Shown one piece after another: positions 17,053 to 31,871 of a stretch of DNA of 32,000 nucleotides (positions are counted from its first letter, which is position 1; every line of letters begins with the position of its first letter). The translations under genes and the position numbers were made by a program. The notes under the pieces were generated by a model. The model saw only the letters and a program-made list of their open reading frames with translations. It had not been told where the DNA came from and did not search any database. Origin of the DNA: Candidatus Saccharimonadota bacterium. GTDB lineage: Bacteria; Patescibacteriota; Saccharimonadia; Saccharimonadales; UBA4665. Location: assembly GCA_963716945.1 (NCBI GenBank), contig OY970322.1, positions 960,001 to 992,000 on the forward strand, in the 5' to 3' direction.

Positions 17053-17249
17053 AATATTCCCTAATTGATTATGCCCATTACTCCTACTTAGCATGAGCTC
17101 AATAGCTAAAATTAGCAAACGGCCGGCCGCGTGAAATCAGAGCCTCCCGGCCTAACCTTGGCGCGGAGAGCCTGAGAGCTTGAATAAGGAACATGTAGCA
17201 GGCAGCGACCGGTACGGACTGGCCTATGCAAAAAACACGTCATTTCAGT

Positions 17250-17257
17250 ATGGTGCG
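17250..17257. repeat. left copy of 8-bp direct repeat ATGGTGCG (candidate crossover core)
   Basis: Identical to 31747..31754. The flanking similarity continues weakly (14/19). Confidence 0.3.
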
Positions 17258-17316
17258 CTTGGTAGGACAGCTTTCCAACCCTTCGCCGAGCTTGAAGGCG
17301 ATCCTTTCCGCTCTGC

Positions 17317-18081
17317 CTAACGAGCGATGAGCTGCAGACGGACTGCCCTCGGTAGGAGCGCCATACAGCCGGTCGCGCTGGTAAGGCGGGCAAGGTTCTC
17401 CCACATCGCTGCCCGTACTCCGGCGGGCGTCTCGCCATAGTGGCTGGCAAGCGCCTTCTCAACGGTCGCAACGAGACCAGGCCGTGCGTGCTGTCCGCTA
17501 CGGCGGTCCCCAAAGGGGTGGTCGGTCTCCGTAAGGATGCGATCAAGCGGAATGACATCGAGCAGATCAGTACGCCGTACCGAGGCTGCGTTGACCGAGA
17601 AGGAGCAGCCAAGTTCAATCGCACGACGAGTTTGCGCGGGGTCGCCTAGCCACCAATGGAGGACGGCTCCGGCGATGGGCTGAGCCTCAAGAGCCTGGAT
17701 CACAAGGCCGGTAGCCTTGTAGCTGTGCAAGCTTGCGATACGGGATGAGTGCTGAAGTTCCGCGAGAACGGCTGAGAGGGTCGCCTGTTGTGTGCTCATT
17801 GGCACGCGTGACGAGCCATCTAGGCCAACCTCGCTGACGAAGGCAGTTCGTTGAATCAGGTCGGCGAAGCGTTTGCGGTCGAACTTCTTTTGCGCGCCGG
17901 CGAGACCTGGATGACAACCCACACCCCAGATCGTCTGCTCGTCTTTACGAGCAAGTGCAATGTCGGCTTCTGAAAGGGAGCGAGTAGCAGCAAAGATTAC
18001 GGCGCTGAGCAGCCGCAACTCAGCGGGGGCGATGGATGCCTTTACATGTGCATGGAGATCGATGGGCGGCTGCGGACTCAC
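17317..18081 (-). CDS. qatD: TatD-family metal-dependent hydrolase/DNase (QatD-like)
   Basis: 254 aa. N-terminal IDLHAHV (HxH), internal His residues, and C-terminal ILTETDHPF (metal-binding Asp). GTG start overlapping the upstream stop (GTGA). Confidence 0.8.
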   Translation of the reverse strand: MSPQPPIDLHAHVKASIAPAELRLLSAVIFAATRSLSEADIALARKDEQTIWGVGCHPGLAGAQKKFDRKRFADLIQRTAFVSEVGLDGSSRVPMSTQQATLSAVLAELQHSSRIASLHSYKATGLVIQALEAQPIAGAVLHWWLGDPAQTRRAIELGCSFSVNAASVRRTDLLDVIPLDRILTETDHPFGDRRSGQHARPGLVATVEKALASHYGETPAGVRAAMWENLARLTSATGCMALLPRAVRLQLIAR

Positions 18082-19370
18082 AACTCAAGTCCTGCAAGCT
18101 CATTCATGCCACGCCGACAAAGGTCCAGCGCATCAGCCAGTGGGTAGCTTGTAGGAAGGTTCATAGCCGTAAGGTCGCGCTGCCGCACGCCACGCTTGAT
18201 AAAGCTGCGCACGGCTGGCTCTACCGACTTGTCGTTAAGCCAGGCTTGCAGTTTCGTATTACCTCCCGGGGCAATGTACGTGGTGGCATCACTCACGCCC
18301 GACGCCACGAATGCTGCCCTGCGGACGACGCAGCCAAAGCAAACGCCACAGGCTTGGGTCGGCGAGACCTTGAAGGCTCTCTGACCAGTATGCGCACACG
18401 AGTTCGTGCTAGTGAGATAGGCCGAAGCCGCGCCTGCTCCCACTAGCTCGGCAGCACGCGCGAACATCTCACCCTTCGTGTTGGCAACAAAGGGATTTTC
18501 GATCGTGCCGTGAGCACCCACTGTACTCAAAACGTTGCCAAGTCCACCGAGGAACGCTGGATGTGTTGTACGTGTAGACACGCTACCAAGACGCTCTGGG
18601 CCAAGGGGCGGGTTGAGGGAGGCAAAGCCGTTCTCGGGTATCCAAAGTGGCACGTCGTAGACGGAGGCTGCGGCCAAGCCAAGCGCTAGGAACAGAAGCG
18701 AGCGCGAGCGGCTGGTGGGCTCGGTCGGATAGTACGTTCCGTCTAGGCGCCGCTGATTACGGGACAGATGAATTTGTAGGTGCTGCTGTGTAGGTCCAGG
18801 GACCAGTCGCTCCGCCGCCTCTGAAATGGTGCGCTGAATCGGCGCTAGTGCCGGAGCACTGAAATGAGACATAAGCACATGCCGCTCGTTGTCGGCAAGC
18901 ATCGACCGGGAAAGCAGCGCCCCGACTGCCGAATCAGCTCCCCCGCTGAGAAGGACAATACGCTGCGGTGCGGCAGGCTCCGCTGCCACTGCCGGGGCAG
19001 TTTCTACCTGCTCCTCGATAAACTCGAAACTCCAGTGATCCCCGGTGAGGAAGCCGACTACAGATGCTAGCTCACCAGCAAACTGCGCCCATTGAGCAGC
19101 GACGGAGACTGGTATGCGCAGTTGAAACTGGCGCTGGTTCCAGTTTGAGCCCCCGCCAGAACGAACGGTTGAACGATCAGCGGCATACACGGCCACGGCA
19201 AGCCGTACAAAGTCGATACTCAGCGCGGGAACAGGGCCGAGACTACTAAGGTTCGGATCAAGCTTAGTCGTAAAGCTTGACGAGCCTGTGGTAAGCCAGT
19301 AGAAAGATGTCTCCGCCTCGTCTGGACTGATGGTGGTGGGCGCATTGAGGCGCAGCGTAAATGCGGGCAT
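18078..19370 (-). CDS. qatC: QueC-like PP-loop ATPase with N-terminal extension (QatC-like)
   Basis: 430 aa. PP-loop IVLLSGGADSAVGALL at about residue 150. C-terminal Cys cluster CAHTGQ...ACGVCFGCVVRR, like the QueC zinc site. Confidence 0.8.
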   Translation of the reverse strand: MPAFTLRLNAPTTISPDEAETSFYWLTTGSSSFTTKLDPNLSSLGPVPALSIDFVRLAVAVYAADRSTVRSGGGSNWNQRQFQLRIPVSVAAQWAQFAGELASVVGFLTGDHWSFEFIEEQVETAPAVAAEPAAPQRIVLLSGGADSAVGALLSRSMLADNERHVLMSHFSAPALAPIQRTISEAAERLVPGPTQQHLQIHLSRNQRRLDGTYYPTEPTSRSRSLLFLALGLAAASVYDVPLWIPENGFASLNPPLGPERLGSVSTRTTHPAFLGGLGNVLSTVGAHGTIENPFVANTKGEMFARAAELVGAGAASAYLTSTNSCAHTGQRAFKVSPTQACGVCFGCVVRRAAFVASGVSDATTYIAPGGNTKLQAWLNDKSVEPAVRSFIKRGVRQRDLTAMNLPTSYPLADALDLCRRGMNELAGLEL

Positions 19371-20176
19371 CAGGAGCTTCCTTCGTAGATGCTGCGCAAG
19401 GTTTCGATGCCATTTTCGATTGCTTGTGTGAATTGGTCTTCGGTCACACCATCAACAGCGAGATTTGCGCGTGAAGCCAAGGCATCGGCGGCGTCGCGGA
19501 CATCACTTTCTGCCAACTCGGCGTGGTTGGAGTTGTTGATGAGTTCACCAGTCTCACTCAGTAGTGCGTCGGCGATAATCAAGCCGATTGTGTGACGCAC
19601 GATCTCTTCTGGAGTCGGTGGCTCGCCGTCTTGGCTGAGCACCCACTCAGCTACCTCGGCTGCGACAAGTCGCTGCTCGTGGTCCTCGATGGTGCTATCG
19701 GCACGAGCGCAAGCAGCATAGGCGATGCGGCGTGCGATCTCGTACTGATCTCCAAGAGCAGTAAGCTCAGCAAAATTGAGTCCAAGCCGTTCCAGTGTCG
19801 AGGCATCACCCGAGCGATAGGCATATGCCGCAGCCGCAGCGCGTCCTGCGGTCCCCGCCGACCGAGCAACAGTGCGATTGGGACCACCGCCGCTGCGGCC
19901 TCCGCCACCTGTTGCAGTACCGCCTGTGCCGCCAGAGCCCCCGCCCGGGCCATCGCTCCCTCCGCTTGTTCCCGATCGCGGTCTGAGCAACCCAACGATC
20001 GGGAGTATCGCTTCGGGGTTTAGCCGAGGTCTGTCGTGCTCTCCTTGGCCCTGGTCTCCGTTGTCGCCTTGACCTGTCTGTGGTGAGGGAAGCGAGTCAA
20101 GCCAGTTGCTGACGTCCTCGCGCAGGCGCTCTCCGACCTTTCCGCCGCTTCCTGAGTACGAGCCGCTTGTGCCCAT
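19370..20176 (-). CDS. qatB: Gly-rich protein of unknown function (QatB position)
   Basis: 268 aa. N-terminus MGTSGSYSGSGGK, a disordered G/S/P-rich first half, and a helical C-terminal half. Start and stop each share one nucleotide with the neighbouring genes. Confidence 0.65.
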   Translation of the reverse strand: MGTSGSYSGSGGKVGERLREDVSNWLDSLPSPQTGQGDNGDQGQGEHDRPRLNPEAILPIVGLLRPRSGTSGGSDGPGGGSGGTGGTATGGGGRSGGGPNRTVARSAGTAGRAAAAAYAYRSGDASTLERLGLNFAELTALGDQYEIARRIAYAACARADSTIEDHEQRLVAAEVAEWVLSQDGEPPTPEEIVRHTIGLIIADALLSETGELINNSNHAELAESDVRDAADALASRANLAVDGVTEDQFTQAIENGIETLRSIYEGSS

Positions 20177-22050
20177 CAGACAGTCTCCCGTTGCTTGAGC
20201 GCGTCATCAATAGCATTCTTCACCGGCTGACTGCTCGCTTGGCCCTTCCAGCCATTCAGAACCTCGAAGAGGTCCGCGTGGTCATTCGGTGCAAAGAGCA
20301 GCGGAGTTGCGACCGAGACATCGGCGGGAGGCAGCATCAGCAGTGCTTTCTTGGCTGCCCCGACGGAGCCTGGTGCCCGACGGGCTATGCGTAGGATGGC
20401 AGTAACACCTGTCTTCTGCTTCGTTGGCTGGTCCCGCACAGTGCGCCCCAGATGCAGGAGCAGTGCGTCGGCCTCAGTTTGAGACAGAGCATCGATGTCC
20501 TCATCACCGACGGCCTGACGATCGGCCCGTGATGTTGAAAGCAAATTGGATGCGATGTCCCGCAAACGCTCAGGCAAGCTGTTGTCGAGCAAAGTGAAGC
20601 TAGAAAATGACGCCGCCAAGTTAAGATAAGGGGACAGGTCGGTGCCGGCAAGCGCTGGCGGCAGCTTTGCCCAACGGAGCAAGCCCTCACCAAAGCCAGT
20701 GGTGCCGTCATCGGTCGTAGATGCTGGCTCGCCATCCTTGTTCTCGCTGCTGGTTCCCTCACTCGTGGATCGACTGGACGGGGATGACCGACCAGCGGCC
20801 AGCTCAAGCTTGGCGATCTGATCGCGCATTGTCCCCTGAGCAAGCCAACCAAGCACCATCGTAAAGTCCTCCGGCAACAGTACCTCAAGAACCATGAGCT
20901 TTGCGACAACGGCTGGGTCCAACTTGATCCCACGCCGCTCTGCGATCGCCTGCCGGACACGTAGATCATTCAGGAAACGCTTGACGCGCCGTGGATTGCC
21001 GTGCAGCTTCTCATAGAGAATCGGCGTCAGTCGGCTCGCGAACGCAAGCGGATCGCTGATGTCCAATCCATCGATGCCAGCAAGGTCATCGAGACTGCCG
21101 GCTTCACGACGGATTTTGGCGCACTGCTCGATCATCACGTCAAACTTGTCGCCTTCAAGGCTCGGCTGGAGTTGAAGCAGCAGAAGGAAAGCCTGCGTAT
21201 CAAATCGGCTGAGCGCCGGCAGCGGGATCGTGGTTTGCACGATCTTATGTAGATAAAGCTTCGCTGGCTCCTCTTCGTCGTGTCGTGGCTGCTCGGCGAT
21301 GCCTGTATCCCTGAATCGCGTCCGAATAGCATCGGCGACGCGATCCTCGTCGGCTGCAATGACAAATGACATCTTGGGAACTGCAAGGAAGAGGCGAATC
21401 GCCTCCAAGGTCTCAATGACGGTCTCGGGGAGGCAGCGGTCGAGATCATCGACAAGCACCGCTACCGCCTGTATGTGCGCCAGCGCCTCAGACGCCATAA
21501 GCTCACGAAATTCTGATCGGAACTCCTCCAAGCCACGAACCTGCTCATCGTCATCACCCTCTGCGGGCTTTACCAAATCGACAATATCGTCAATCGAGGG
21601 AATCTGAAAAGCCAGTGATGTCTTAGCGGTCAGCTTGATCGCCTTGGCCCAGTCGATGCGCTTGGCTAGACGCGAGACGAGGCGCTGCGCTTTCTCCTTG
21701 ACGCCCTCAATAGTCGTCTCGGAGTTCTCAACCTCACGTGCGAGCGCAGCCAGTACCTCGCCAATAAGAGTCTCCTTTGCCCCGGTCGTGGGATCGTAAC
21801 GCCACGGCTCGGTCTTAATGACAAGTACCTTCTGTCCGTCGGTAGCGCGCTGTCCCAGCTCCTTCTCAACCAAGCCAAGGACAGTTGTCTTGCCACTACC
21901 CCACGCGCCCGAGAGGCCAAGGGCGACCGGATCAAGTGCTCGGTCAAGGAGCGCGTCCGCTGCCGTAGCAGCAACCGCATCGAATGACAGGAGGTCGGTC
22001 GGTGCTGGATCGTCGGACCACAACGCCAAAGTCGGCGCTGTAGTGGTCAT
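20176..22050 (-). CDS. qatA: KAP-family P-loop NTPase (QatA-like)
   Basis: 624 aa. Walker A LSGAWGSGKTT, Walker B/KAP signature VLVDDLDRCLPETVIETLEAIRLFL, and a long helical C-terminal region. Confidence 0.8.
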   Translation of the reverse strand: MTTTAPTLALWSDDPAPTDLLSFDAVAATAADALLDRALDPVALGLSGAWGSGKTTVLGLVEKELGQRATDGQKVLVIKTEPWRYDPTTGAKETLIGEVLAALAREVENSETTIEGVKEKAQRLVSRLAKRIDWAKAIKLTAKTSLAFQIPSIDDIVDLVKPAEGDDDEQVRGLEEFRSEFRELMASEALAHIQAVAVLVDDLDRCLPETVIETLEAIRLFLAVPKMSFVIAADEDRVADAIRTRFRDTGIAEQPRHDEEEPAKLYLHKIVQTTIPLPALSRFDTQAFLLLLQLQPSLEGDKFDVMIEQCAKIRREAGSLDDLAGIDGLDISDPLAFASRLTPILYEKLHGNPRRVKRFLNDLRVRQAIAERRGIKLDPAVVAKLMVLEVLLPEDFTMVLGWLAQGTMRDQIAKLELAAGRSSPSSRSTSEGTSSENKDGEPASTTDDGTTGFGEGLLRWAKLPPALAGTDLSPYLNLAASFSSFTLLDNSLPERLRDIASNLLSTSRADRQAVGDEDIDALSQTEADALLLHLGRTVRDQPTKQKTGVTAILRIARRAPGSVGAAKKALLMLPPADVSVATPLLFAPNDHADLFEVLNGWKGQASSQPVKNAIDDALKQRETV

Positions 22051-22100
22051 GGCGCCAACCTAGAATTATTGCCGAGAATCGAACTATAGGGCATGTCACT

Positions 22101-22106
22101 ATTATA
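22101..22106 (-). promoter_or_regulatory. TATAAT box 50 nt upstream of the qatA ATG; no good -35
   Basis: The reverse strand reads ggcattgTATAATagtgacatgc. Two short palindromes lie just upstream (22127..22137 and 22145..22155). Confidence 0.3.
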
Positions 22107-22176
22107 CAATGCCGGAGTTTGGCAATCTTGCGACAAGGCGAAAGGTGCGTCGCACAAGTGTCATTGTCGGGCGGGC

Positions 22177-22409
22177 TCAGCCTCTGACGATCTGCGATAT
22201 GCGTTGGTGGCTCATGCCCATGATTCGGGCGATGGCTGTCATGGGCAGGCCCTCGCCGTAAGCGGCGCGGATCGCCTCGTCCCGCTCCTGCCGCAACTCC
22301 TCGCCTGCCTTCTCCCACGCTGCCTCGCGCCGAGCGTAGCCCTTGGCAAAGGCTGCTAGCTGGCTTTTGGCTTCGGGTGCTTGGCGTTCAGATCGAGCGA
22401 TTCAGGCAT
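22177..22409 (-). pseudogene. small HTH DNA-binding protein, frame broken at an A4/T4 run (or sequencing error)
   Basis: ATG 22409 gives MPESLDLNAKHPKPKAS-stop. The adjacent frame continues as SQLAAFAKGYARREAAWEKAGEELRQERDEAIRAAYGEGLPMTAIARIMGMSHQRISQIVRG-stop (22177), a typical HTH ending. One extra A in the run at 22365..22368 fuses the two. The downstream frame has no canonical start except a TTG that would give 37 aa. Confidence 0.45.
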
Positions 22410-22473
22410 CGTGTAGCCTATTCCTGCTAGTCGGTTAGCAAGAACAGTCCCGAGCTACAGGAGCCTCCTATCC

Positions 22474-23019
22474 ATGCCACGCATCGACCGCCTGAACCCC
22501 CATGCAAAGCGCATCGCCGTGCTCGCCGTAGCCGGCGTAGCAAGCCTGCTCGCGCCCCTGTCGGCAGAGTCGGCTCCGGCGGCGTCGCCCCAGCAATGCC
22601 AGGCGGCAGCGCTCGCTCGCCCGGCCGTCCTCACGGGGGCCTATGTCGGTGGCTATGTGCTCAACAACAACCACTACGAAATCCGGGTCAGCGAGCCGGT
22701 CATGCCGTCGGGCTGCAAGGGCACGGTGACGCTCAAGCCGTTTCAGCAGAAGCAGGAGCTTGGCGACGGCCTATCGCCGAAGCTCGAATGGATTCCATAC
22801 GGCTTCCGCCCGGACAGCACCGTGATAGCTCATGGACAGGAGCGAGTCGTCATGCGTGCCGCCCGGCTGTGCTGGTCATTCTCGATCGGCGGCGGCGGTG
22901 ATGGCGACCTCAAGCGTCACACCGAGGCTCGGCCAGCGGTTAGGAAGACGTGGCGACCGCAAGGCGGCCGTCCGGTATCGGTGATCTTCAGCGGCACGGC
23001 GCGAACGGTTTGCAAATAG
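22474..23019 (+). CDS. secreted protein of unknown function
   Basis: 181 aa. Signal-peptide-like N-terminus (KRIAVLAVAGVASLLAPLSAESAPA) and four Cys. GGAG lies 11 nt upstream. Confidence 0.6.
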   Translation: MPRIDRLNPHAKRIAVLAVAGVASLLAPLSAESAPAASPQQCQAAALARPAVLTGAYVGGYVLNNNHYEIRVSEPVMPSGCKGTVTLKPFQQKQELGDGLSPKLEWIPYGFRPDSTVIAHGQERVVMRAARLCWSFSIGGGGDGDLKRHTEARPAVRKTWRPQGGRPVSVIFSGTARTVCK

Positions 23020-23091
23020 GCAGCGCGACGTTCTCTATAGCGTCATAATCAGCTCGCTAGCACGGCTGTGCGCGGTCGCGCAGCGCACTAT

Positions 23092-23658
23092 TTACGCCGA
23101 TGGTGCATCAGGGGTCAGTAGCTCTACCAAACCTCGCAACGCTCCGCGCGCCACGTCGAGAGTCCCTTGATCCTTGAACTCGTCGGTCTCCCTACGCCAC
23201 GCTATCCATCGCCGCATAAGGTCGCGGCCACTAACTACCTGGCGTAGGCCGGACATCAAGATACGTTCTTCCCGGTGGCCGATCTGGCGGGGAAGATCCT
23301 CGGGCTCCGGGTCGTCCGTGGCCACGTCATTGAATGTCTCTCGCAGCCAGCCTCGCTCCGCCTCGTTGTATGGAAAGGCCGTGTGAAACTTATGCCAAAG
23401 ATCGTAGAATTCTGCGTTTTGCGCTGAGCCTTGCTGACCTTGGTCAACCGGACCGGTCAAATGCTCTGCCCAGTTTTCCAATTCGGTCCAGTCCTCAAAC
23501 GCCTGCAAGTCGTCCTCTAGCCAGGGCTGTTCGGGGTCTTCTATCGGTAAAAGCTCAGCCGATAGGTACTCCAACAAATAGCCAACGTGCATACCGACTT
23601 CTTGACCCATCGGGCCGAAGGGTAAGCGTTCTTGTGACTGTTCTGTACCTTGCGCCAT
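23092..23658 (-). CDS. strongly acidic, Trp-rich hypothetical protein (188 aa)
   Basis: Clean ORF with its own TTGTAT-N17-TATAAT promoter. The sequence has many D/E and W residues (EDPEQPWLEDDLQAFEDWTELENWAEH). Confidence 0.65.
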   Translation of the reverse strand: MAQGTEQSQERLPFGPMGQEVGMHVGYLLEYLSAELLPIEDPEQPWLEDDLQAFEDWTELENWAEHLTGPVDQGQQGSAQNAEFYDLWHKFHTAFPYNEAERGWLRETFNDVATDDPEPEDLPRQIGHREERILMSGLRQVVSGRDLMRRWIAWRRETDEFKDQGTLDVARGALRGLVELLTPDAPSA

Positions 23659-23684
23659 GCGACTATTACCTACTCAATATATGA

Positions 23685-23713
23685 ATTATACCATACTTTG
23701 ATTATTAATACAA
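23685..23713 (-). promoter_or_regulatory. promoter TTGTAT-N17-TATAAT
   Basis: The reverse strand reads TTGTATtaataatcaaagtatggTATAAT, in the only AT-rich spacer of the island. Confidence 0.45.
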
Positions 23714-23724: not shown

Positions 23725-24849
23725 CTATTCTCCTTGTTCAACTGCAACATGAAATCCCACGGTCTCGGAAAACTTGTTCGCAGGCGCCTCGCTATGGTCG
23801 ATGATCGTGCCTAGCGGGTCGGTCGCAACATAGTCATTGAGATGGGTCGTGATCCAGTGTGGGTGAGTTTCATTAATACCAATATTGTGCTTCCAAGTAA
23901 CCGTACCTGGAACCAAGACTAGCCGAGTCGGCGCGGCCGTCAGAACATGGGTTGCCCACTTGACTTCCGGAGCATTGGCAGCCTTGACCGCTACTTGGAC
24001 GACATGATCTCTGGTTTCTTCAGTCTGATCGAGACCAACGGACAGGCGAACATTGATCGCGCTCAGACCGCCGGGGCTGGCGGCATTGACAAAGTAAGCC
24101 TCTAGGGCTAGCTGGTCGCCGGCTTCGGCTACAACCCCTCCTGCTCGATAGGAATGGTCGTGCTTTGTAATATCGGCCGCGTAAAGCAATGCTTCAAGCT
24201 GGGTCTCGTGAGCTGGGACGTGTCTTCGGAGTCCTACGTATTCACCGCCAGTAGTAGGTTTACGCTGGGCGGCGTTTTTGTGACCATTGCTGACCAGGCC
24301 GAGCCAGCCAAGCACAGAAACAGCAATTGCCAACGGAATCGCACCCGCGAGGAGCCAGCGAAGATGTCGCTGAGGCCGGTGACGAGGCTCGTTCTGCTCG
24401 AATCGAACCTGGCCGTCGTCCGGTTGCTGCCGGACCTGAATATCGGCCGCGCGTTCCTCGGCTAGGCGGACAAGATGACCAGCTAGCTGCCTTAGCATCG
24501 GCTTCTCAAGCTCGTCTTCCAGATGCTTGACCGTTACGCCACCGAGTCTGCGTGCGACATCTTCGCGTCGTTGCGAGAGATATCGCCTTTTCGTGGCCGA
24601 AAAGTCCATGAGTTCGGCGACTGCGGGACCATTGAGCTCCCCCATATGTTTGGCGGCCGCTTCAAGTGCCGCCTTGATCTGGTCTGCCACCGGCTGACTA
24701 GGGTCGTCGCTGAGGCGTCGGGCTGCCGCTTCCAAAACGGGCAGCGGGATCTTCTGCGTGCCGCGCCGTACGCCGTATCGCCGGAGAGCTAGCAGCTCGG
24801 CCGCCAGCACCGTCGGATCTAGCTCGGAAGCCGATTCGGCCTTCGTCAT
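23725..24849 (-). CDS. single-pass membrane protein: helical cytoplasmic N-domain, beta-rich C-terminal ectodomain
   Basis: 374 aa. TM helix WLLAGAIPLAIAVSVLGWLGLV at about residue 165. No motif recognised. Confidence 0.7.
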   Translation of the reverse strand: MTKAESASELDPTVLAAELLALRRYGVRRGTQKIPLPVLEAAARRLSDDPSQPVADQIKAALEAAAKHMGELNGPAVAELMDFSATKRRYLSQRREDVARRLGGVTVKHLEDELEKPMLRQLAGHLVRLAEERAADIQVRQQPDDGQVRFEQNEPRHRPQRHLRWLLAGAIPLAIAVSVLGWLGLVSNGHKNAAQRKPTTGGEYVGLRRHVPAHETQLEALLYAADITKHDHSYRAGGVVAEAGDQLALEAYFVNAASPGGLSAINVRLSVGLDQTEETRDHVVQVAVKAANAPEVKWATHVLTAAPTRLVLVPGTVTWKHNIGINETHPHWITTHLNDYVATDPLGTIIDHSEAPANKFSETVGFHVAVEQGE

Positions 24850-24970
24850 GGGTCGGAATCTTAGAAGTACCAGGGAAATGAGGTGTCTTTCCGGTGCTTA
24901 TGGGGTGGTTTTTTGTCGTTTGCTGAGGCTGCCGGTTTTGACTACGACCCATCTCAGGAAGGAAGCCACC

Positions 24971-25261
24971 ATGTCGAACCTCACCTCCCGTCGTTCTTCC
25001 CAGCCCTTTCAGCCCGACAGAACGCTGAACCACCAAGTCGCCGATGCCGAGCGGGTCGGTATCACGGCGGTCGCCCGAATCCAGGCCGGGGCCTTCGCCA
25101 CATCGGTCGCCATGCAGAACGCCTGCATGTTGTCTCGCGCGGCCAACGCCGCGTTCAAGGTCAGCCCGATGGGCGAGGAGGTCTACCAGGCCATCTTTAC
25201 GGCCTACGGGACGCTGGCGATCACCGAGATCCAGGGCCTCAGCTTCCGGGGGCGATCCTGA
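24971..25261 (+). CDS. hypothetical protein (96 aa)
   Basis: ATG preceded by GGAAGGAAG. It is the 3' part of track ORF 24758..25261. Its stop shares a base with the next start (TGATG). Confidence 0.55.
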   Translation: MSNLTSRRSSQPFQPDRTLNHQVADAERVGITAVARIQAGAFATSVAMQNACMLSRAANAAFKVSPMGEEVYQAIFTAYGTLAITEIQGLSFRGRS

Positions 25262-25494
25262 TGGCTGTTGTCGAGTCGTTTCCCGTGGCGTTTGGCGTGA
25301 TCGTGCTCGCACTGGTCGTAATCGGTGCCCTCGCAGGGCTATCCCCTGACTCTCCAGGCGATGATCGGGCCGCCCCCTACCGCGAAGGACTTCATGCGGC
25401 TAACCGCATCCAGAGGGTCGCTCAAGACTTTGAGCAGCAGATTTACGCCGAGGCGGCGCGGCAGATCGAACGAGACCAGGGAGATCGGCCCTGA
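25261..25494 (+). CDS. small N-terminally anchored membrane protein (77 aa)
   Basis: MAVVESFPVAFGVIVLALVVIGALAGL... It is coupled to both neighbours by TGATG overlaps. Confidence 0.55.
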   Translation: MAVVESFPVAFGVIVLALVVIGALAGLSPDSPGDDRAAPYREGLHAANRIQRVAQDFEQQIYAEAARQIERDQGDRP

Positions 25495-26045
25495 TGCACA
25501 ACCAGTCGTCGATCGCCGCGCCTCAATCGCCGGGTTTTCGGCACGAGCGCTCGCGGGGAGCGTCGGTGGAGTGGTACACGCCGCCCGAGGTCTTTCGGGC
25601 GCTCGGCATCTCGTTTGACCTTGACCCGGCAGCTCCGGCTGGTGGTTTGTCATGGGTGCCGGCCAAGCGTTTCCTCAGCCGAGCTGATGACGGCCTCGCC
25701 CAACCCTGGCAGGGCCGGGTGTGGCTGAACCCGCCCTATGGCCGGGAAGTGAATCGTTGGCTCGACCGTTTGGCGCTGCACGGCGACGGCTTGGCTTTGG
25801 TGTTCGCGCGCACGGACACCCGCTGGTATCAGGCGGTTGTGCGACGGGCGACCGCGATTTGCTTCATTGCTGGGCGTCTGTCATTCGTCGGGGCGAACGG
25901 AGTGCCGGTCGGCAGCGCTGGCGCGCCGTCGGTCCTGCTGGCCTTCGGGTTGCCTTGTGCGCTAGCAGTGAGTGAGTCACGGCTGGGACAAACCCTGATC
26001 TTGCCCCGTGAAGTACGACGAGAAAGACCGGGAGGTAAATCCTAA
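25494..26045 (+). CDS. DNA N6-adenine methyltransferase, phage Dam-like family (orphan)
   Basis: 183 aa. VEWYTPPEVFRALGISFDLDPAA, then WLNPPYGREVNRWL (NPPY catalytic motif), then FARTDTRWYQ. No cognate endonuclease is adjacent. Confidence 0.8.
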   Translation: MHNQSSIAAPQSPGFRHERSRGASVEWYTPPEVFRALGISFDLDPAAPAGGLSWVPAKRFLSRADDGLAQPWQGRVWLNPPYGREVNRWLDRLALHGDGLALVFARTDTRWYQAVVRRATAICFIAGRLSFVGANGVPVGSAGAPSVLLAFGLPCALAVSESRLGQTLILPREVRRERPGGKS

Positions 26046-26215: not shown

Positions 26216-26456
26216 AAGTTCAGGGGTGATTCCTCTTGTGGTAGGGCTAGTCGTGTCGGTGTTGTGAAATGCACAGAGGGCATTGACTGATTCGCATAAT
26301 CATTATTCAATAGTCATCCTCCCGGTACAGCCGTAAGCGGTACACGGTTTGGTTTTGGTGACGGGCTTGGCCCGTCAAGCAGGAATTAGCCTCTAGTGGG
26401 GCTTGGCCTTCTGCGTGCCAAAATCCGGCCCGGCAGGGAGAGGAAGGAGGTTCACT

Positions 26457-26684
26457 ATGAGTAGAACCTATCATCATGGCGAACGTCGGATTCGAGTCCG
26501 GGGTGTGCGCCGCCCGGCTGACTTGCGCCGTTTGGCGCGGGCACTAATTGAGCTGGAGTATCAGCAAGCCCAGGCCGAGGCGGAAGCCGAAGCCGAGGCG
26601 CAGCACCGGAAGGAGTCGGAAGCCAAGCGTGGTCAGCAGCGCGGTAGTGACGGCGTGGCCGGTACTGAGCGGGGCGGCGCGTGA
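26457..26684 (+). CDS. small basic protein with (EA)n repeat, first gene of the transfer operon
   Basis: 75 aa from ATG 26457, which lies 6 nt after GGAAGGAGG (the track's longer start lacks an RBS). MSRTYHHGERRIRVRGVRRPADLRRLARALIELEYQQAQAEAEAEAEAQ... GTGA overlap with the next gene. Confidence 0.6.
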   Translation: MSRTYHHGERRIRVRGVRRPADLRRLARALIELEYQQAQAEAEAEAEAQHRKESEAKRGQQRGSDGVAGTERGGA

Positions 26685-28837
26685 AGCTGGCGTGGTATCA
26701 ACTGCACTGGCCGCGCGAGGTCGAGCCTGAGCAGGTAGCCCAAGCCTTTCGGCTGCTGGCGACGGCCGCCGGTAGTCCGGTCGTCATTGAAGCGCTCGGT
26801 TCGCCCGGTGCAGTCGAGCATCGTCTGGCCTTGCCAGCCAGTCGGGCCGAGAGCGTGGCTGACCAGCTCCGAGCTGCCATCCCTGGCCTTGCGGTCGAAG
26901 CCGTCGGCGAGCGACCGGCGCTGAACGTCACGCGAGCGGTGGAGCTGCGGGCAACTACCAAACGCCGGCCGCTGCGCACCGACGACATGGCCGGCGTCAG
27001 TCGGGCGATACTGACGGCGCTGGCGCACTTGCGCCGGGGTGAGCGGCTGACTGTCCAGTGGGTGCTCGGCCGTCCGCTCGCGGCAATGGTCGTGCCGAAT
27101 CACCTGGACAGTTTGCCGCCTGAGTCGTGGCTGGCGGCGCTGTTGCTGGCTCCGTTCGCGCCATCGCAAGCGGCCGATGGCGAGCTGCGTAACGCGCTGC
27201 GGGCCAAGCAGGCCGAGCCGGGCTGGCAGGCTGTGGGGCGGGTGGCCGTCAAGGCCAAAACGGTTAGCCGTGAGCGGCAGCTCATCCGGCAGGTGGTCGG
27301 CGCCTTGCGCAGCGCCGAAGCGCCCGGTGTCAGCTTGCGGGTCTGCTCGACCAGCGCCAGCCGGGTGATCGGGGTGAACGTGCCGCGTTGGCTGTGGCGG
27401 CTGCGCTTGAACGCCAGCGAGCTAGCGACCGTCTCGGCGTGGCCGGTCGGCTTGACCGGCGAGTTGCCGGTGGAGATGAGCCCGAGCCGGCTGGTAGCTC
27501 CTTCGGCTGCTGTCCCTAGAGCTGGGCGAGTGGTTGCGACAGCGACCTTTCCTGGCCGAGAGCGTCCGCTGGCGCTCGCGCCTGCCGATTCGCTGCGGCA
27601 TCTGCACGCCCTCGGGCCGACGGGTTCAGGTAAGTCAACGCTGTTGCTCAACCTCATCGTGCAGGACATGGCGGCTGGCCGAGCGGTCGTCGTCATTGAG
27701 CCCAAAGGCGACCTGATCGCCGACGTGCTGGAGCGTGTCCCGCCGAGTCGTCTCGCTGACGTGGTGCTGCTTGATCCGACCGACACCGCGCGGCCGGTCG
27801 GACTCAATCCGCTGGCGCTCGGCGGGCGGTCGCCAGAGCTGGCAGCCGATCAACTGCTCGGCTTGTTTCACTCGCTGTACGCCGCGCATTGGGGGCCAAG
27901 GACGCACGACATTCTCGGTGCTTCCCTGCTGACACTGGCCCGGCTGCCCGGCATGACCTTGGCGGCGCTGCCGCTCTTGCTGACGGATGCCGGTTTTCGG
28001 CGGCGCGTCTTGCCGGGCGTGGTCGATCCGATTGGCCTGGGGCCGTTCTGGAGCGCCTACGAGGCGTGGAGCGAGGCCGAGCGGGCGGCGGCCATCGCGC
28101 CGGTTATGAACAAGTTGCGCCCGTTGTTGCTACGGCCGGAACTGCGGGCCATCATCGGCCAGAGTCGGCGGAGCTTTGACCTGCGGCGGGTCTTCACCGA
28201 GCGCAAGCTACTGCTGGTCAACCTCAGCAAGGGGCTGCTCGGGCCGGAGACTTCGGGCCTGCTGGGGAGCCTGGTTGTCTCGCAGCTCTGGCAGGCGATT
28301 CTCGGGCGGACAGCCATATCACCAGAGCGCCGCCATCCGGTCTTCGTCTACGTTGATGAGTTCCAGGACTACCTGCGCTTGCCGCTCGACCTGGCCGACG
28401 CGCTGGCACAGGCGCGAGGCTTGGGCGTCGGCTTCGTCGTAGCCCACCAGTACATGCACCAGCTCGACCCGGCGATGCGCTCGGCGGTGCTCGCCAACGC
28501 GCAGAGTCGCGTGGCCTTCCGGCTGCCGAGCGAGGACGCACGCAGCATCGCGGCCGACAGTGCCCTGACGGCTGAGGACTTCCAAAGCCTCGGGGCCTTC
28601 CAGTGCTATGCGCAGCTCGTCGCTGGCGCGGCCGTCCAGCCGTGGTGCAGCGCCGCGACCGTGCTGCCCGGCGGCCCGGTCAGCGATCCGGCAGCCGTTC
28701 GCAATGTCTCGCGCCGCGCCTACGGCGTTGATCGAGCCGAGATTGAGGCCGACCTCCAGGAGCTGTTCCTCGGCCGCCGCCAGTCAACCGGCGATGACCT
28801 TGCGCCGCGGCGGCGGAATCATGGGGGTGCGGTATGA
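26681..28837 (+). CDS. VirD4/TraD-like type IV coupling-protein-family ATPase
   Basis: 718 aa. Walker A LGPTGSGKSTLLLN, Walker B VFVYVDEFQDY, and C-terminal AHQYMHQL...NAQSRVAFRL. The ~300-aa N-terminal domain has no TM helix. Confidence 0.8.
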   Translation: MKLAWYQLHWPREVEPEQVAQAFRLLATAAGSPVVIEALGSPGAVEHRLALPASRAESVADQLRAAIPGLAVEAVGERPALNVTRAVELRATTKRRPLRTDDMAGVSRAILTALAHLRRGERLTVQWVLGRPLAAMVVPNHLDSLPPESWLAALLLAPFAPSQAADGELRNALRAKQAEPGWQAVGRVAVKAKTVSRERQLIRQVVGALRSAEAPGVSLRVCSTSASRVIGVNVPRWLWRLRLNASELATVSAWPVGLTGELPVEMSPSRLVAPSAAVPRAGRVVATATFPGRERPLALAPADSLRHLHALGPTGSGKSTLLLNLIVQDMAAGRAVVVIEPKGDLIADVLERVPPSRLADVVLLDPTDTARPVGLNPLALGGRSPELAADQLLGLFHSLYAAHWGPRTHDILGASLLTLARLPGMTLAALPLLLTDAGFRRRVLPGVVDPIGLGPFWSAYEAWSEAERAAAIAPVMNKLRPLLLRPELRAIIGQSRRSFDLRRVFTERKLLLVNLSKGLLGPETSGLLGSLVVSQLWQAILGRTAISPERRHPVFVYVDEFQDYLRLPLDLADALAQARGLGVGFVVAHQYMHQLDPAMRSAVLANAQSRVAFRLPSEDARSIAADSALTAEDFQSLGAFQCYAQLVAGAAVQPWCSAATVLPGGPVSDPAAVRNVSRRAYGVDRAEIEADLQELFLGRRQSTGDDLAPRRRNHGGAV

Positions 28838-29163
28838 GTGCCTGTCGTGTCGCTCGTCGCATCGCGTCGATGACGCTGCCGGCAAACGCCCGTAGTAACG
28901 CCGTAAACGCCCGCACTTTGGCAACGAAAGTCTTTGACTGTTGTTGTCACCTTTTTCTGCCTGGGTGCGGCGGGCAGATCCCGGCCGGGGTGCTGCGGCG
29001 GGCGGTCGGGCTGCTCGATAGCGGCGAGTGCCTGTCAGCGGGGGTGGCGCTGTTCCCCCGGCAGGGGAGCGCCCGTCGCGTCGGGTGCTCGGTGACGCCT
29101 GCGGCAACACCTTTCATGACTGTCTGTTTGGTAACGAAAGGAAAGAATGGAGATAAAGGATGA
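28834..29163 (+). CDS. Cys-rich hypothetical protein (109 aa)
   Basis: No motif and an odd composition. However, both ends are exact ATGA overlaps with the flanking genes (28834..28837 and 29160..29163), and third-position GC is high, as in its neighbours. Confidence 0.4.
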   Translation: MSACRVARRIASMTLPANARSNAVNARTLATKVFDCCCHLFLPGCGGQIPAGVLRRAVGLLDSGECLSAGVALFPRQGSARRVGCSVTPAATPFMTVCLVTKGKNGDKG

Positions 29164-29978
29164 GACGGGCGATGCCCGTGCGTCCTTATATGTCGGGGAG
29201 GGGGCTCCGGCAAACGCGCGAGCGTCTGTCGGCACGGGACTTGGGCATCATCCGGCAGGTGGCCGAGCTGCGGCTGATGAGCGCCCGCCAGATTCAGGCC
29301 GTCCACTTCCCCGCCATCGAGCACGACAACGAGCAGGCCGCCACTCGCGCCCGACAGCGAGTCTTGGAGCGACTGACGCGCGAGCGGCTGCTGATCCGGC
29401 TGGATCGTCGCATCGGCGGTGTTCGGGCCGGTTCGGCCGGTTTCGTGCTGGCGCTCGGGCCAATCGGGCAGCGCGTACTGGCAGTCGGGCCAAGGCGTCG
29501 CGCCTACGAACCGACGCTGCGGTTTGTCGATCACACGCTCGCCATCGCCCAGCTCGTCGTAGACCTGACGGTCGCCTCGCGCCGGGGCGTGCTCGACCTG
29601 TTGGCCTTTGAGGCCGAGCCTCGAAGCTGGCGGGAGTTCGGAGTCATCGGCGGGCGGCGCTTGCTGCGACCCGATGCGTTCCTAGTGCTCGGCAGCGGCG
29701 ATTATGAGCTGCGCTGGTTCATCGAGGTAGACAGGAGTAGCGAGAGCCTGCCGGTGATCGTGCGCAAGTGTCGCCTGTACGCCGACTACTACCAGTCGGG
29801 CAAAGAGCAAGCCGCGCACGGCGGGGTGTTCCCGCGCGTCTGCTGGATCGTGCCGGATGACAGGCGCGCGGAGAAATTGCGCCAAGCCATTGCCCGTGAT
29901 CGCACGTTGCCCGAGGGGCTATTTATGGTGACAGCTACGGGCGTGGCGCTCACTGTTTTGCGAGAGGTAAAAGTGTGA
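29160..29978 (+). CDS. replication-relaxation family protein
   Basis: 272 aa. N-terminal LSARDLGIIRQVAELRLMSARQIQAVHFP and later RPDAFLVL...WFIEVDRSSESL are typical of the family found on actinobacterial-type plasmids and ICEs (recognised from memory). Confidence 0.8.
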   Translation: MRRAMPVRPYMSGRGLRQTRERLSARDLGIIRQVAELRLMSARQIQAVHFPAIEHDNEQAATRARQRVLERLTRERLLIRLDRRIGGVRAGSAGFVLALGPIGQRVLAVGPRRRAYEPTLRFVDHTLAIAQLVVDLTVASRRGVLDLLAFEAEPRSWREFGVIGGRRLLRPDAFLVLGSGDYELRWFIEVDRSSESLPVIVRKCRLYADYYQSGKEQAAHGGVFPRVCWIVPDDRRAEKLRQAIARDRTLPEGLFMVTATGVALTVLREVKV

Positions 29979-30021
29979 AACGGTCCTTTACTCGTATGGT
30001 GAATGTAGTACACTTAACAAC

Positions 30022-31770
30022 ATGCAGGCTGTATCAGTTCAACGGGATAGGAGACACGTATCGATGGCTCTGAGTACGCACGCTGACAATCCCGATGGAG
30101 CTGCGGCCGTCATCTACCTGCGGGTATCGAGCAAGGAGCAAGCCGAAAAGGGCGGCGAAGCCGAGGGATTCTCGATCCCCGCGCAACGCGAGGGCTGCAA
30201 GCGCAAGGCGCAGAGCCTAGACGCGGTAGTCATCGAGGAGTTCGTCGAGCGCGGCGAGTCGGCCAAGACGGCTGACCGACCCGAGTTGCAACGGCTACTT
30301 GCCTACCTCGCCGAGCATCCTGTCAAGTACGTCATCGTCCACAAGGTTGACCGACTGGCGCGCAACAGGGCCGATGACGTAGCGATCAACATGGCGATTC
30401 GGCAGGCCGGGGCCGAGCTGGTGTCCGTCTCCGAGAACATCGACCAAACGCCATCGGGTCTACTGCTGCACGGCATCATGGCCTCGATCAGCGAGTTCTA
30501 CAGCCGCAACTTGGCGACGGAGGTCATCAAGGGCACCACGCAGAAGGCCAAGAACGGCGGCACGCCGGGTCGTGCGCCGATCGGCTATCTGAACGTGCGG
30601 GGCATGATCGAGGGCCGCGAAGTCCGTACCGTCGAGGTCGATCCGGTGCGCGGGCCGCTGATGGCGTGGGCGTTCGAGGCGTATGCGACCGGCGAGTGGA
30701 CAATCCGGCGTCTACTGGCTGAGCTGACCGCCCGAGGCTTGACGACGGCACCGGGCCGAAAGAATCCGGGCCGGCCAGTGGTCGTCTCGCACCTGCATAC
30801 GCTACTGCGCAACCCGTACTACATGGGCATGGTGCGCTACCGGGGAGCGGTCTACGTAGGCAAGCACGAGCCGCTCGTCACGCCCGCCATTTGGCATGAA
30901 GTCCAGAGCATCTTGAGCGCGAAGTACCTAACCGGGGAGAAGGATCGGGAGCACCCGCACTACTTGAAGGGCAGCATCTACTGCGGCCAGTGCGGCGCTC
31001 GCCTGATTGTCAATCGAGCCAAAGGCAACGGCGGCAGCTACATGTACTTCGTCTGTGGCGGACGACAGCGCGACCCGGCAAGCTGCCAGTTCCGGGCGGC
31101 ACGGATCGAGCAGGTCGAGGCTGCCGTCGTCGCCTGCTACGCGACTGTGCAGCTTCCCGAGGATGAGGTTGCACGACTGCGTACCTTCTTGGGTCAAGAG
31201 CTGGCGAAGCTTCGCAGCGACTCCGAGCGTGAACGGGACGAGCAGGAGCGCCGACTGCGAGGACTCCAGGGCGAACGCGAGAAGCTGCTCCAAGCCCACT
31301 ACGCCGATGCGATCCCGCTCGACCTTCTCAAGCGCGAGCAAGACCGCCTCACGACAGCTATAGCCAACGCCGAAGGTCGGCTGGCTGCCATCACCGCCGA
31401 CCTCAAGGCGGCCGATGCAAATATGCACAAGGCCCTGACCCGAGCCGGCGACTGCCAGACCGCTTACGACGAAGCCGCCGACCGGCTGCGCCGGCAATTC
31501 AATCTGACCTTCTTCAAGCGCCTCGTCGTCTACGACTCCAGCAACGTCTCCGCCGAGCTGGCCGAACCTTGGGACATCATCCTCGGAGAGGAGCTGCGAC
31601 GGGCAGTCGCCGCACAAGAGGCCGAAAGCCTCAAAGACGCCATTGAACACGCCAAGCGCGAGCACGCACGACGCCCACGCGGGCCAATCGCAGGCAAGAC
31701 GACAACCGCCGCCCCTGATTGGGGCGGCGGTTGGAGTCCGAACATGATGGTGCGGGTGAGGGGACTCTAA
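30022..31770 (+). CDS. large serine recombinase (integrase)
   Basis: 582 aa (568 if ATG 30064 is used). Resolvase catalytic domain AVIYLRVSSKEQ...VHKVDRLARN, a recombinase domain, the zinc-ribbon CGQCGARL...FVCGG, and a long coiled-coil tail. The last 23 nt overlap tRNA-Gly. Confidence 0.9.
   Translation: MQAVSVQRDRRHVSMALSTHADNPDGAAAVIYLRVSSKEQAEKGGEAEGFSIPAQREGCKRKAQSLDAVVIEEFVERGESAKTADRPELQRLLAYLAEHPVKYVIVHKVDRLARNRADDVAINMAIRQAGAELVSVSENIDQTPSGLLLHGIMASISEFYSRNLATEVIKGTTQKAKNGGTPGRAPIGYLNVRGMIEGREVRTVEVDPVRGPLMAWAFEAYATGEWTIRRLLAELTARGLTTAPGRKNPGRPVVVSHLHTLLRNPYYMGMVRYRGAVYVGKHEPLVTPAIWHEVQSILSAKYLTGEKDREHPHYLKGSIYCGQCGARLIVNRAKGNGGSYMYFVCGGRQRDPASCQFRAARIEQVEAAVVACYATVQLPEDEVARLRTFLGQELAKLRSDSERERDEQERRLRGLQGEREKLLQAHYADAIPLDLLKREQDRLTTAIANAEGRLAAITADLKAADANMHKALTRAGDCQTAYDEAADRLRRQFNLTFFKRLVVYDSSNVSAELAEPWDIILGEELRRAVAAQEAESLKDAIEHAKREHARRPRGPIAGKTTTAAPDWGGGWSPNMMVRVRGL
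31747..31754. repeat. right copy of 8-bp direct repeat ATGGTGCG
   Basis: Covers the CCA end and the last acceptor-stem bases of tRNA-Gly. Identical to 17250..17257. Confidence 0.3.
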
Positions 31771-31824
31771 CCCCTGGCCTCGTCCTTGGCAAGGACGCGC
31801 TCTAAACAACTGAGCTACACCCGC
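31748..31824 (-). tRNA. tRNA-Gly(GCC), CCA encoded, unusual D/T loops
   Basis: Reverse complement GCGGGTGTAGCTCAGTTGTTTAGAGCGCGTCCTTGCCAAGGACGAGGCCAGGGGTTAGAGTCCCCTCACCCGCACCA. All four stems pair. Anticodon loop TTGCCAA. The D loop is AGTTGTTTA (no GG) and the T loop is TTAGAGT (A at position 56). Confidence 0.8.
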
Positions 31825-31871
31825 ATGTTGTACCGGACTATATTACCTGAAATGGCCGGCCGAAATCAACG

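Follow-up and report, generated by a model that had tools for sequence, protein, structure and literature searches.

Gene content of the locus

The window analysed here is a stretch of 32,000 nucleotides from contig OY970322.1; all positions are counted from the first nucleotide of the window. The contig belongs to a 1.1-Mb Saccharibacteria genome; six sequences that we take to be TM7 primers or probes have perfect matches, in the expected order, in its only 16S gene, and the genomes of all relatives measure 0.5-1.5 Mb. The left part of the locus comprises four genes on the minus strand. The gene at 20176..22050 encodes a KAP-family P-loop NTPase equivalent to QatA (PADLOC QatA, 8.9e-81; Pfam KAP_NTPase, 2.4e-39), the gene at 18078..19370 a QueC-like QatC (PADLOC QatC, 2.2e-71), and the gene at 17317..18081 a TatD-family DNase equivalent to QatD (PADLOC QatD, 1.6e-36; Pfam TatD_DNase, 5.6e-29). 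QatC and QatD each exhibit 88% amino acid identity to the corresponding proteins of the Actinomycetota contig OY970180.1 (G364). The 268-residue product of 19370..20176, which is 92% identical to that of G364, is assigned as QatB by position, as its gene lies between those of QatA and QatC and overlaps both; this candidate QatB has no PADLOC or Pfam match. QatABCD was reportedly described by Gao et al. in 2020 as an operon comprising a KAP ATPase, an uncharacterised protein, a QueC-like protein and a TatD DNase. The present operon resembles it in its four genes and in the three products that match PADLOC models, and differs from it in the missing model match of QatB and in its location, on an integrative and mobilisable element (IME) of a Saccharibacterium. 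The defence operon that the first-pass annotation had placed at the far end of the element is thereby confirmed as QatABCD, a predicted anti-phage system, and can be regarded as cargo since it lies between the mapped element ends.

The middle part of the locus is less readily interpreted. A small HTH protein of ~70 residues, with an uncertain start codon, is encoded at 22177..22386 on the minus strand (Pfam Sigma70_r4, 5e-6) and exhibits 63-80% amino acid identity to genes in the left part of seven Solirubrobacterales elements; it is a candidate regulator or directionality factor. It is followed by a 181-residue ORF (22474..23019, plus strand) with no family matches and no tblastn match in the related loci, a conserved 188-residue protein (23092..23658, minus strand) with homologues in 11 related loci, including one of 46% identity in locus L067, and a 374-residue protein (23725..24849, minus strand) with 37% identity to L067 and no family matches. 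On the plus strand, 24883..25494 encodes a conserved 203-residue protein that recurs in 14 related loci (73.5% identity in L067). For four conserved uncharacterised proteins of the element, no function could be assigned with PHROGs or NCBIfam. An orphan Dam-like N6-adenine methyltransferase, also cargo, is encoded at 25494..26045 on the plus strand (Pfam Dam, 1.8e-15; PADLOC orphan MTase, 4.6e-10) and is absent from L067, whose homology to the window stops at 25499 and restarts at 26043.

The right part comprises the transfer module and the recombinase, all on the plus strand, and the genes from 26681 to 31770 overlap or are at most 44 bp apart. The transfer operon starts with a basic 93-residue protein (26403..26684; 68% identity to L067), whose gene end overlaps the start of that of a VirD4-like type IV coupling protein (T4CP) of 718 residues (26681..28837). 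This T4CP scores above the cut-off with both Pfam TrwB_AAD_bind (33.3 bits) and T4SS-DNA_transf (22.7 bits) and exhibits 89% amino acid identity to that of L067, its best plasmid matches being T4CPs of Embleya and Streptomyces (37-40%). An accessory 109-residue protein (28834..29163), coupled to both neighbours and with homologues in 16 related loci, precedes a 272-residue relaxase (29160..29978) with a Replic_Relax domain (PF13814, 1.6e-40) and a PHROG match to 'replication initiation by nicking' (5.6e-17). PF13814 corresponds to MobC (PMC5357655). The genes of these four proteins overlap translationally, in agreement with the coupled operon proposed earlier. Neither VirB4 nor any other mating-pore match was found in the element ORFs scanned with Pfam, NCBIfam and PHROGs, so that this part of the initial proposal also stands. 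The element thus has its own recombinase with attL and attR and its own PF13814 relaxase but no mating-pair-formation genes, and the combination of recombinase, relaxase and coupling protein fits the proposed mobilisable, rather than self-transmissible, element. For transfer, the MobC relaxase and the VirD4-like coupling protein would depend on a type IV secretion system supplied by a helper; the sole VirB4 found in the host genome (CD1110 family, 362 bits; G000:166.6-168.6 kb) lies ~790 kb away.

The large serine recombinase (30022..31770) comprises 582 residues when integrated and contains the Resolvase (PF00239, 4.2e-32), Recombinase (PF07508, 9.7e-10) and Zn_ribbon_recom (PF13408, 8.7e-11) domains, all above cut-off, with the catalytic motif YLRVSSKEQ at its N-terminus. 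It exhibits 85% amino acid identity to the recombinase of L066. As originally noted, its ORF stops inside tRNA-Gly, 23 nt into the minus-strand gene at 31748-31824, and its final 7 residues correspond to tRNA-Gly antisense sequence.

Attachment sites and the recombinase tail

The element limits are a TGCG at 17254-17257 (attL) and a TGCG at 31751-31754 (attR), the latter in the acceptor-stem 3' strand of tRNA-Gly(GCC). This target gene (31748..31824, minus strand; ARAGORN) is left intact. Comparison with relatives confirmed to the base the previously suggested insertion at the tRNA 3' end, with junctions exactly as predicted. Across elements, a conserved arm, TGCGCTTGGTAGGACAGCTTTCCAACC, marks the left ends. 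In the window, the P' arm of attP, CTTGGTAGGACAGCTTTCCAACC (17258..17280), has a reverse complement beginning with GGTTGGA, as the P arm does. It is identical at 32/33 positions to L069:2916-2948, aligns with L079 over 52 nt at 84.6% identity, and is also present in L100, L074, L081 and G364; in L069, L079, L100 and L074 the same arm directly follows unrelated flanks. On the other side of the core, the B arm (17224..17253), the former 3' trailer of tRNA-Gly, is unlike the flanks of related elements, and the G364 homology begins at 17254, not before. It is this conservation of the P' arm in relatives, together with the colinearity of G364 from exactly 17254, that fixes the left end at this position.

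In the window, L069, L100 and L074, attL and attR have TGCG alone in common; in G364, attL has TGCA and only TGC is shared. TGC(G) is the core shared across six elements, and the exchanged dinucleotide, TG or GC, lies within TGC. The P arm, GGTTGGAGTCCGAACATGATGG (31729..31750), forms part of the recombinase ORF, with GWSPN encoded by its first 15 nt, and is near-identical in G364, L067, L069 and L095. The attP rebuilt from both arms is an imperfectly palindromic sequence of 49 bp, GGTTGGAGTCCGAACATGATGG-TGCG-CTTGGTAGGACAGCTTTCCAACC, with GGTTGGA at the start of both arms. The B' arm is the T arm of tRNA-Gly (GGACTCTAACC, plus strand).

Some of the first indications proved less informative than these comparisons. 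The 8-bp ATGGTGCG is indeed present at 17250-17257 and 31747-31754, and both sites coincide with the true ends; however, the window contains five copies of it where 1.6 would be expected, and it is not diagnostic alone. A search near the left boundary for a second copy of the tRNA 3' end in direct orientation gave no match longer than this 8-mer. The T6 run assigned to 17231-17236 is an A6/T6 run at 17230-17235, within the B arm, and the terminator context suggested for it is not supported, as a terminator scan detected no hairpin there. No strictly empty tRNA-Gly site was found in close relatives: the distance from RibD_C to tRNA-Gly is 1.6 kb in G016 and G022 versus 16.3 kb here, G016, G022 and G024 have different genes in the slot beside the tRNA, and the similarity of the same-genus G001 to the window is confined to the part from 31748 to the right, with other DNA beside its tRNA-Gly. 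Metagenome contigs gave no match to the circular junction, to the attB, attP, attL and attR junctions or to the family attP.

With regard to the mechanism, the recombinase has very probably joined the 49-bp attP to the tRNA-Gly(GCC) gene of the host at its 3' end, the acceptor stem being the place of crossover, within TGC(G). The sequence of the mature tRNA is unchanged, and the old trailer is now found 14.5 kb away, at attL. Because the recombinase gene spans attP, integration also swaps the C-terminal tail of the enzyme. In the attP form, the recombinase comprises 601 residues and ends in a conserved 24-residue tail, RLVGQLSNPSPSLKAILSALPNER, which is replaced by 5 tRNA-encoded residues in the 582-residue form. 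In L074, the exchanged tail is 112 residues long. Among the 80 related loci, most have a tRNA gene that converges on the recombinase gene at its stop or within ~100 bp of it, ORF overlap is common, and most also have a GGTTnGA-type motif ~20 nt from the tRNA end. The recombinase probably reads this motif ~20 bp from the crossover, with the tRNA T loop as the host-side copy. Such a supply of GGTTnGA by the T loop could explain the many tRNA targets of the relatives, tRNA-Leu being the commonest among those of Solirubrobacterales, and possibly the entry into another phylum. Since GGTTnGA is absent from the B arm, it explains only half of the recognition of the sites.

Origin of the element and alternative readings

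In the recombinase tree, the enzyme is nested in a 38-row Solirubrobacterales clade, with L066 as sister (SH-like support 99), which points to an element from Actinomycetota. The comparison with actinobacterial DNA recommended at the outset revealed a colinear copy in the Actinomycetota genome OY970180.1 (G364), with nucleotide identities of 88.7% over 17254-22167, 82.6% over 22186-22444 and 75.7% over 26084-31772, and with homology ending in the tRNA at ~31772. L067 exhibits 82.7% nucleotide identity to the window over 5.8 kb, and its relaxase 86% amino acid identity. The element therefore appears to have originated in Actinomycetota (Solirubrobacterales) and now resides in a Saccharibacteria chromosome; its type is typical of high-GC soil actinobacteria. 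As the nearest actinobacterial copies are 76-89% identical at the nucleotide level, the true donor is not among the sampled genomes, and the transfer may be an old one. The Saccharibacteria host, the actinobacterial origin and the crossing of attP by the recombinase gene are observations beyond the first-pass annotation.

The opposite direction, in which an element native to Saccharibacteria, or an ancient one, spread into Actinomycetota, would be in line with the existence of Saccharibacteria's own serine-recombinase elements at tRNA-Gly, such as that of G089, where an unrelated recombinase ends inside tRNA-Gly and a Qat operon is also present, and with the frequency of large serine recombinases in the family. 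We nevertheless consider it improbable, because the recombinase is located many forks deep within Solirubrobacterales and all 80 closest loci belong to Actinomycetota, whereas the best Saccharimonadales recombinase is only 55% identical and relaxase homologues, found in 3 of 250 Saccharimonadales, reach only 40-45%. The GC content of the element core also agrees with that of the actinobacterial flanks.

Composition is of little help in delimiting the element. The genome has a GC content of 57.4% (sd 3.2% per 2 kb); the stretch from 17.1 to 26 kb is genome-typical (56-67% per 500 bp), the element core reaches 65-69% versus 57% for the host, and only ~26.4-30 kb (63-71%) exceeds the 99th percentile. 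The GC jump initially taken as the left boundary does exist at 17121, but it corresponds to the end of a heliorhodopsin and NAD-binding cassette, within a low-GC anomaly at 12.5-17.1 kb, and lies 130 bp left of the true junction. The tetranucleotide distance is high over all of 11-32 kb and hence does not resolve the boundary either; the composition profiles proposed earlier were thus computed, and neither separates the element from the adjoining low-GC stretch. The host-typical GC of the Qat region (56-62%) would equally suit an element limited to a ~9.5-kb backbone (~22.1-31.75 kb), with Qat as a separate, abutting host defence island, and most Solirubrobacterales relatives indeed share just 22.15-31.77 kb, without Qat. 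We searched 15.4-23.2 kb for inverted and direct matches of the attR region, and the sole notable one, a weak direct match at 22214-22239, was rejected as an alternative left end, as it is coding sequence of the conserved HTH gene. Moreover, the P' arm is found at 17254-17285 and not at 22 kb, G364 carries the same Qat operon at the same place with homology from 17254, and of 250 other Saccharimonadales only 2 gave a QatC match, which makes a separate island very unlikely.

The actinobacterial core GC and relatives of the element, in a genome apparently derived from a metagenome, could also suggest an actinobacterial fragment misjoined into a Saccharibacteria contig during assembly or binning. 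However, the two junctions lie well within a single contig of 1.1 Mb and coincide with the exact recombination core, and a misjoin would not produce hybrid attL and attR sites. In addition, attR uses a Saccharibacteria tRNA-Gly, whose 3' 56 nt are 100% identical to those of the same-genus G001, whereas the actinobacterial copies use tRNA-Leu; identity over the tRNA-Gly/tRNA-Phe pair is 94%, and attL adjoins the Saccharibacteria heliorhodopsin cassette. A chimera is accordingly highly improbable. A prophage or phage satellite is the least probable reading, given a module of relaxase and coupling protein and no capsid, portal, tail or lysis match in the ORFs scanned (Pfam, PHROGs), even though many phages have serine integrases, the recombinase has matches in 394 phage records (at 31% identity or less) and the T4CP has a weak terminase-like PHROG match. 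We thus regard window 17254-31754 as, very probably, an intact 14.5-kb IME in tRNA-Gly(GCC), of Solirubrobacterales origin, with Qat cargo and a tail swap of its recombinase.

Relation to known systems and biological meaning

In gene content, the element is similar to the streptococcal IME_Class_8, which combines a compact VirD4 coupling protein, a MobC (PF13814) relaxase and a serine integrase (Coluzzi et al. 2017, PMC5357655). It shares with that class the three signature proteins in a compact same-strand order, the lack of mating-pore genes and the cargo at the far end, but it belongs to a family of Actinomycetota elements and was carried into Saccharibacteria. Serine-integrase IMEs have been described as integrating inside genes (PMC5704250), whereas the present element is at a tRNA 3' end and disrupts no gene. 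Ghinet et al. (2011, PMC3218068) call integration by serine recombinases at tRNA genes rare, the examples being AICEs of Mycobacterium, located in tRNA-Leu, and phage phiRSM1, located in tRNA-Ser. The element resembles these AICEs as an actinobacterial integrative element with a serine recombinase at a tRNA gene. AICEs transfer double-stranded DNA by means of an FtsK/TraB translocase and a Rep protein, neither of which is present here: no PF01580 or Rep-family match was found, and the ATPase of the element is VirD4-like.

The recombinase has the Resolvase, Recombinase and zinc-ribbon architecture and the catalytic serine motif of phiC31, Bxb1, TP901-1, A118 and SCCmec CcrA/B, and, like characterised large serine integrases, combines a minimal shared core with an imperfectly palindromic attP. 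In contrast to them, it is at most 31% identical to any phage integrase, scores far below the cut-off of the NCBIfam Ccr models, has attP within its own coding sequence and uses a tRNA end as attB. Among tyrosine recombinases, those of the mycobacteriophages BPs and Brujita undergo integration-dependent C-terminal switching, and SSV1-type integrases are split by their own attP. In these systems, as here, the attachment site lies in an element gene and integration alters the C-terminus of its product; the present enzyme differs in being a serine recombinase and in exchanging just a 24-residue tail.

Saccharibacteria (TM7) are tiny epibionts thought to live on Actinomycetota. It is possible, although we hold this only tentatively and with more doubt than confidence, that they repeatedly capture intact elements from their host actinobacteria through recombinases reading the near-universal tRNA T arm, and that the tail swap acts as a sensor of the integrated or excised state, helping to set directionality. 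If so, each captured element would mark the host lineage like a fingerprint in the genome, in this case Solirubrobacterales for a soil Saccharibacterium. To our knowledge, the hosts of soil Saccharibacteria are almost unknown, and a precisely delimited actinobacterial element in the chromosome of an epibiont leads to a testable host prediction, namely Solirubrobacterales. The element also provides direct evidence that whole mobile elements, and not single genes alone, cross between Saccharibacteria and Actinomycetota, and it equips a genome of 1.1 Mb with a complete predicted anti-phage system. Its recombinase family represents a large and little-described clade of serine integrases that appear to target tRNA ends without damage and have attP within the integrase gene, and its compact, reconstructable attP/attB pairs could become integration tools.

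Recombinase, transfer genes and target tRNA

The right end of the element carries a large serine recombinase of 582 aa (30022-31770), which exhibits Resolvase, Recombinase and Zn_ribbon_recom domains and the catalytic motif YLRVSSKEQ. As the first-pass annotation stated, this ORF ends inside a tRNA-Gly: its stop codon lies 23 nt within tRNA-Gly(GCC) (31748-31824, minus strand, ARAGORN), which is followed by tRNA-Phe. The coupled transfer operon described upstream of the recombinase is also present, with four translationally coupled genes encoding a 93-aa protein, a 718-aa VirD4-like coupling protein, a 109-aa protein and a PF13814 (Replic_Relax) relaxase. No mating-pore genes were matched in the element, in agreement with its description as mobilisable. 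The streptococcal IME_Class_8 has the same architecture, combining a VirD4 coupling protein with a MobC/PF13814 relaxase and a serine integrase (PMC5357655). IMEs with serine integrases have been described as inserting within genes (PMC5704250), and insertion of serine recombinases in tRNA genes has been termed rare, an example being the Mycobacterium AICEs in tRNA-Leu (PMC3218068).

Ends of the element

Among genome contigs, 80 loci encode close relatives of the recombinase, and every one of them is from Actinomycetota. Gene order is conserved in related loci, with identities of up to 89% for the coupling protein and up to 86% for the relaxase, and with the 109-aa and a 203-aa protein among the other shared genes. 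Compared with L067, the closest core relative, all core ORFs of the element are full length. A 33-52-nt sequence starting at 17252-17254 (TGCGCTTGGTAGGACAGCTTTCCAACC...) recurs in four of these loci (L069, L079, L100, L074), 7-9 kb upstream of the recombinase and each time after unrelated flanking DNA. OY970180.1 (labelled uncultured Actinomycetota; locus L066) holds a colinear copy, bounded by tRNA-Leu(GAG), which matches 17254-22167 at 88.7%, 22186-22444 at 82.6% and 26084-31772 at 75.7% nucleotide identity. As the first base of this homology is the T of the predicted core TGCG (17254-17257), the element corresponds to 17254-31754 and the Qat defence operon is its cargo, at the far end, as previously proposed. 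The right end lies in tRNA-Gly, and the left end is the core, 130 bp to the right of the GC step at 17.12 kb.

Host relatives agree at the right end. In a same-genus relative (G001), similarity to the window (81% over 4.5 kb) starts exactly at 31748 and extends to the right; the DNA left of its tRNA is unrelated, has 42% GC and carries a clean terminator hairpin immediately behind the tRNA. The distance from RibD_C (14841-15449) to tRNA-Gly is about 1.6 kb in two other genomes (G016 and G022) versus 16.3 kb in the window, and no DNA-level match to 17100-31760 was observed in five relatives. The slot between tRNA-Cys and tRNA-Gly (2876-31748) is a variable region of Saccharibacteria chromosomes, whose gene content differs between genomes and whose length is 6 kb (G016), 27 kb (G024) or 23 kb (G089).

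The window lies within one contig of 1,099,440 bp with 57.4% GC (sd 3.2% per 2 kb), so 17.1-26 kb is ordinary in GC. Only 26.4-30 kb (63-71% GC) exceeds the 99th percentile, which contradicts a high GC sustained from 17.12 kb to the tRNA. The step itself exists, but its left side (12.5-17.1 kb) is abnormally low while its right side is genome-typical. A heliorhodopsin and NAD-binding pair (15645-17118) is a cassette recurring in unrelated context in another genome (G042) at 77.6% nucleotide identity over about 1.5 kb, with sharp ends at 15638 and 17121; the latter end explains the step. Throughout 11-32 kb, tetranucleotide use ranks in the top 3-15% by distance from the genome mean. The profiling suggested as a check flags a foreign region, but the left boundary cannot be placed from composition. 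The low-GC stretch directly left of the element (12500-17121, 37-50%, strongly atypical tetranucleotide use) contains an HSDR_N-like nuclease-domain ORF, two unknown ORFs, RibD_C, heliorhodopsin and the NAD(P)-binding protein.

Cargo, origin and transfer

PADLOC models identified the four-gene Qat operon (17317-22050, minus strand) through QatA (8.9e-81), QatC (2.2e-71) and QatD (1.6e-36), the second gene having no PADLOC match. QatC was found in 2 genomes from a sample of 250 Saccharimonadales, and OY970180.1 also encodes it (88% aa identity). The QatA homologue of that copy aligns in two frames, with a break at about residue 476-480 (L152/L153, joined-loci 10536-12402), which reflects either a frameshift or an indel error from long reads. 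The 42%-GC same-family Saccharibacterium G089 carries a QatABCD operon of its own (58-76% aa identity; L150/L151, G089:C1:536000-566000) together with a large serine recombinase that is unrelated (25% identity) and terminates 12 nt within the same tRNA-Gly(GCC); the two span positions 11935-29813 of the joined loci. A Dam-like orphan methyltransferase gene (25494-26045) is missing from L067, where homology breaks off at 25499 and restarts at 26043, indicating a clean insertion.

The host is a Saccharibacterium: six TM7-specific primers or probes match its single 16S gene (375180-376640) perfectly and in the expected order. This gene has the usual 907-926 site with TM7-type differences, and all host relatives measure 0.5-1.5 Mb. 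The nearest 40 or so recombinase relatives (63-85% aa identity) belong to Solirubrobacterales MAGs of 3-4 Mb. In a FastTree of 81 recombinases, excluding rows with a best HSP below 400 aa (including L007, L009 and L010), the enzyme lies many forks deep in a 38-row Solirubrobacterales clade, as sister to L066 (SH-like support 99). Relaxase homologues were found in 3 genomes of the 250-genome sample, at 40-45% identity. The unpublished genomes G002, G015 and G132 enter only the tallies of relatives, and no claim is built on them. From these sequence relationships we conclude that the element originated in Actinomycetota; with best nucleotide identities of 83-89%, the actual donor is unsampled.

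Among plasmids, the coupling protein is best matched by Embleya and Streptomyces sequences (37-40%). The host genome contains a CD1110-family VirB4 (362 bits versus an NCBIfam cut-off of 325; G000:C1:166616-168568, L158:1300-3252, minus strand), which fits the MPF-FATA-like system of Patescibacteria (PMC12102498). This conjugal transfer ATPase might assist mobilisation, and the element may have been moved by that system, by a helper element of the actinobacterial partner or by uptake of DNA. Horizontal transfer between the two has served as evidence that Saccharimonadia and an actinobacterial partner are associated (bioRxiv 10.64898/2026.09.16.751625).

Attachment sites and site recognition

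The 8-bp repeat proposed as crossover core, ATGGTGCG, is present at 17250-17257 and 31747-31754. However, it occurs five times in the window (1.6 expected) and alone is no evidence for a boundary. Since only TGC(G) is common to attL and attR, the left and right junctions, in six elements, the crossover dinucleotide is TG or GC, on the 3' strand of the acceptor stem. No hairpin accompanies the T6 run regarded as terminator context, which is located about 15 nt away from where the tRNA formerly ended. The search for the circular junction, suggested as a check and run on metagenome contigs, found neither junction reads nor circular forms.

The P arm (31729-31750) lies within the last recombinase codons, its first 15 nt encoding GWSPN. 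In the integrated state the ORF has 582 aa and the ending ...NMMVRVRGL; once rejoined at the core, it would extend to 601 aa and finish in ...NMMVRLVGQLSNPSPSLKAILSALPNER. The protein sequence of this tail (24-28 residues) is conserved across six elements, and in L074 the tail measures 112 aa. In L073 (11715-19959), two tRNA-Leu(GAG) genes lie 8 kb apart with the conserved right flank after the second, which may reflect tandem elements. In L081 (12558-13382), a lone copy of the P' arm, about 700 bp away from a tRNA-Leu(TAG), may be a decayed element.

Read towards the core, both arms of the reconstructed free-form site attP, GGTTGGAGTCCGAACATGATGG-TGCG-CTTGGTAGGACAGCTTTCCAACC, begin with GGTTGGA. 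Their host counterpart at the corresponding distance is the T arm of the tRNA (GGACTCTAACC; reverse complement GGTTAGAGTCC), and no GGTTnGA-type motif was found in the host arm of attL. Most of the 80 loci have such a motif about 20 nt from the end of the tRNA, and the targets of these loci are tRNAs for Leu, Ala, Val, Lys, Arg, His and Phe, with Gly in the window. The recombinase thus probably reads T-loop sequence, which would explain both its hopping between targets and its ability to enter another phylum.
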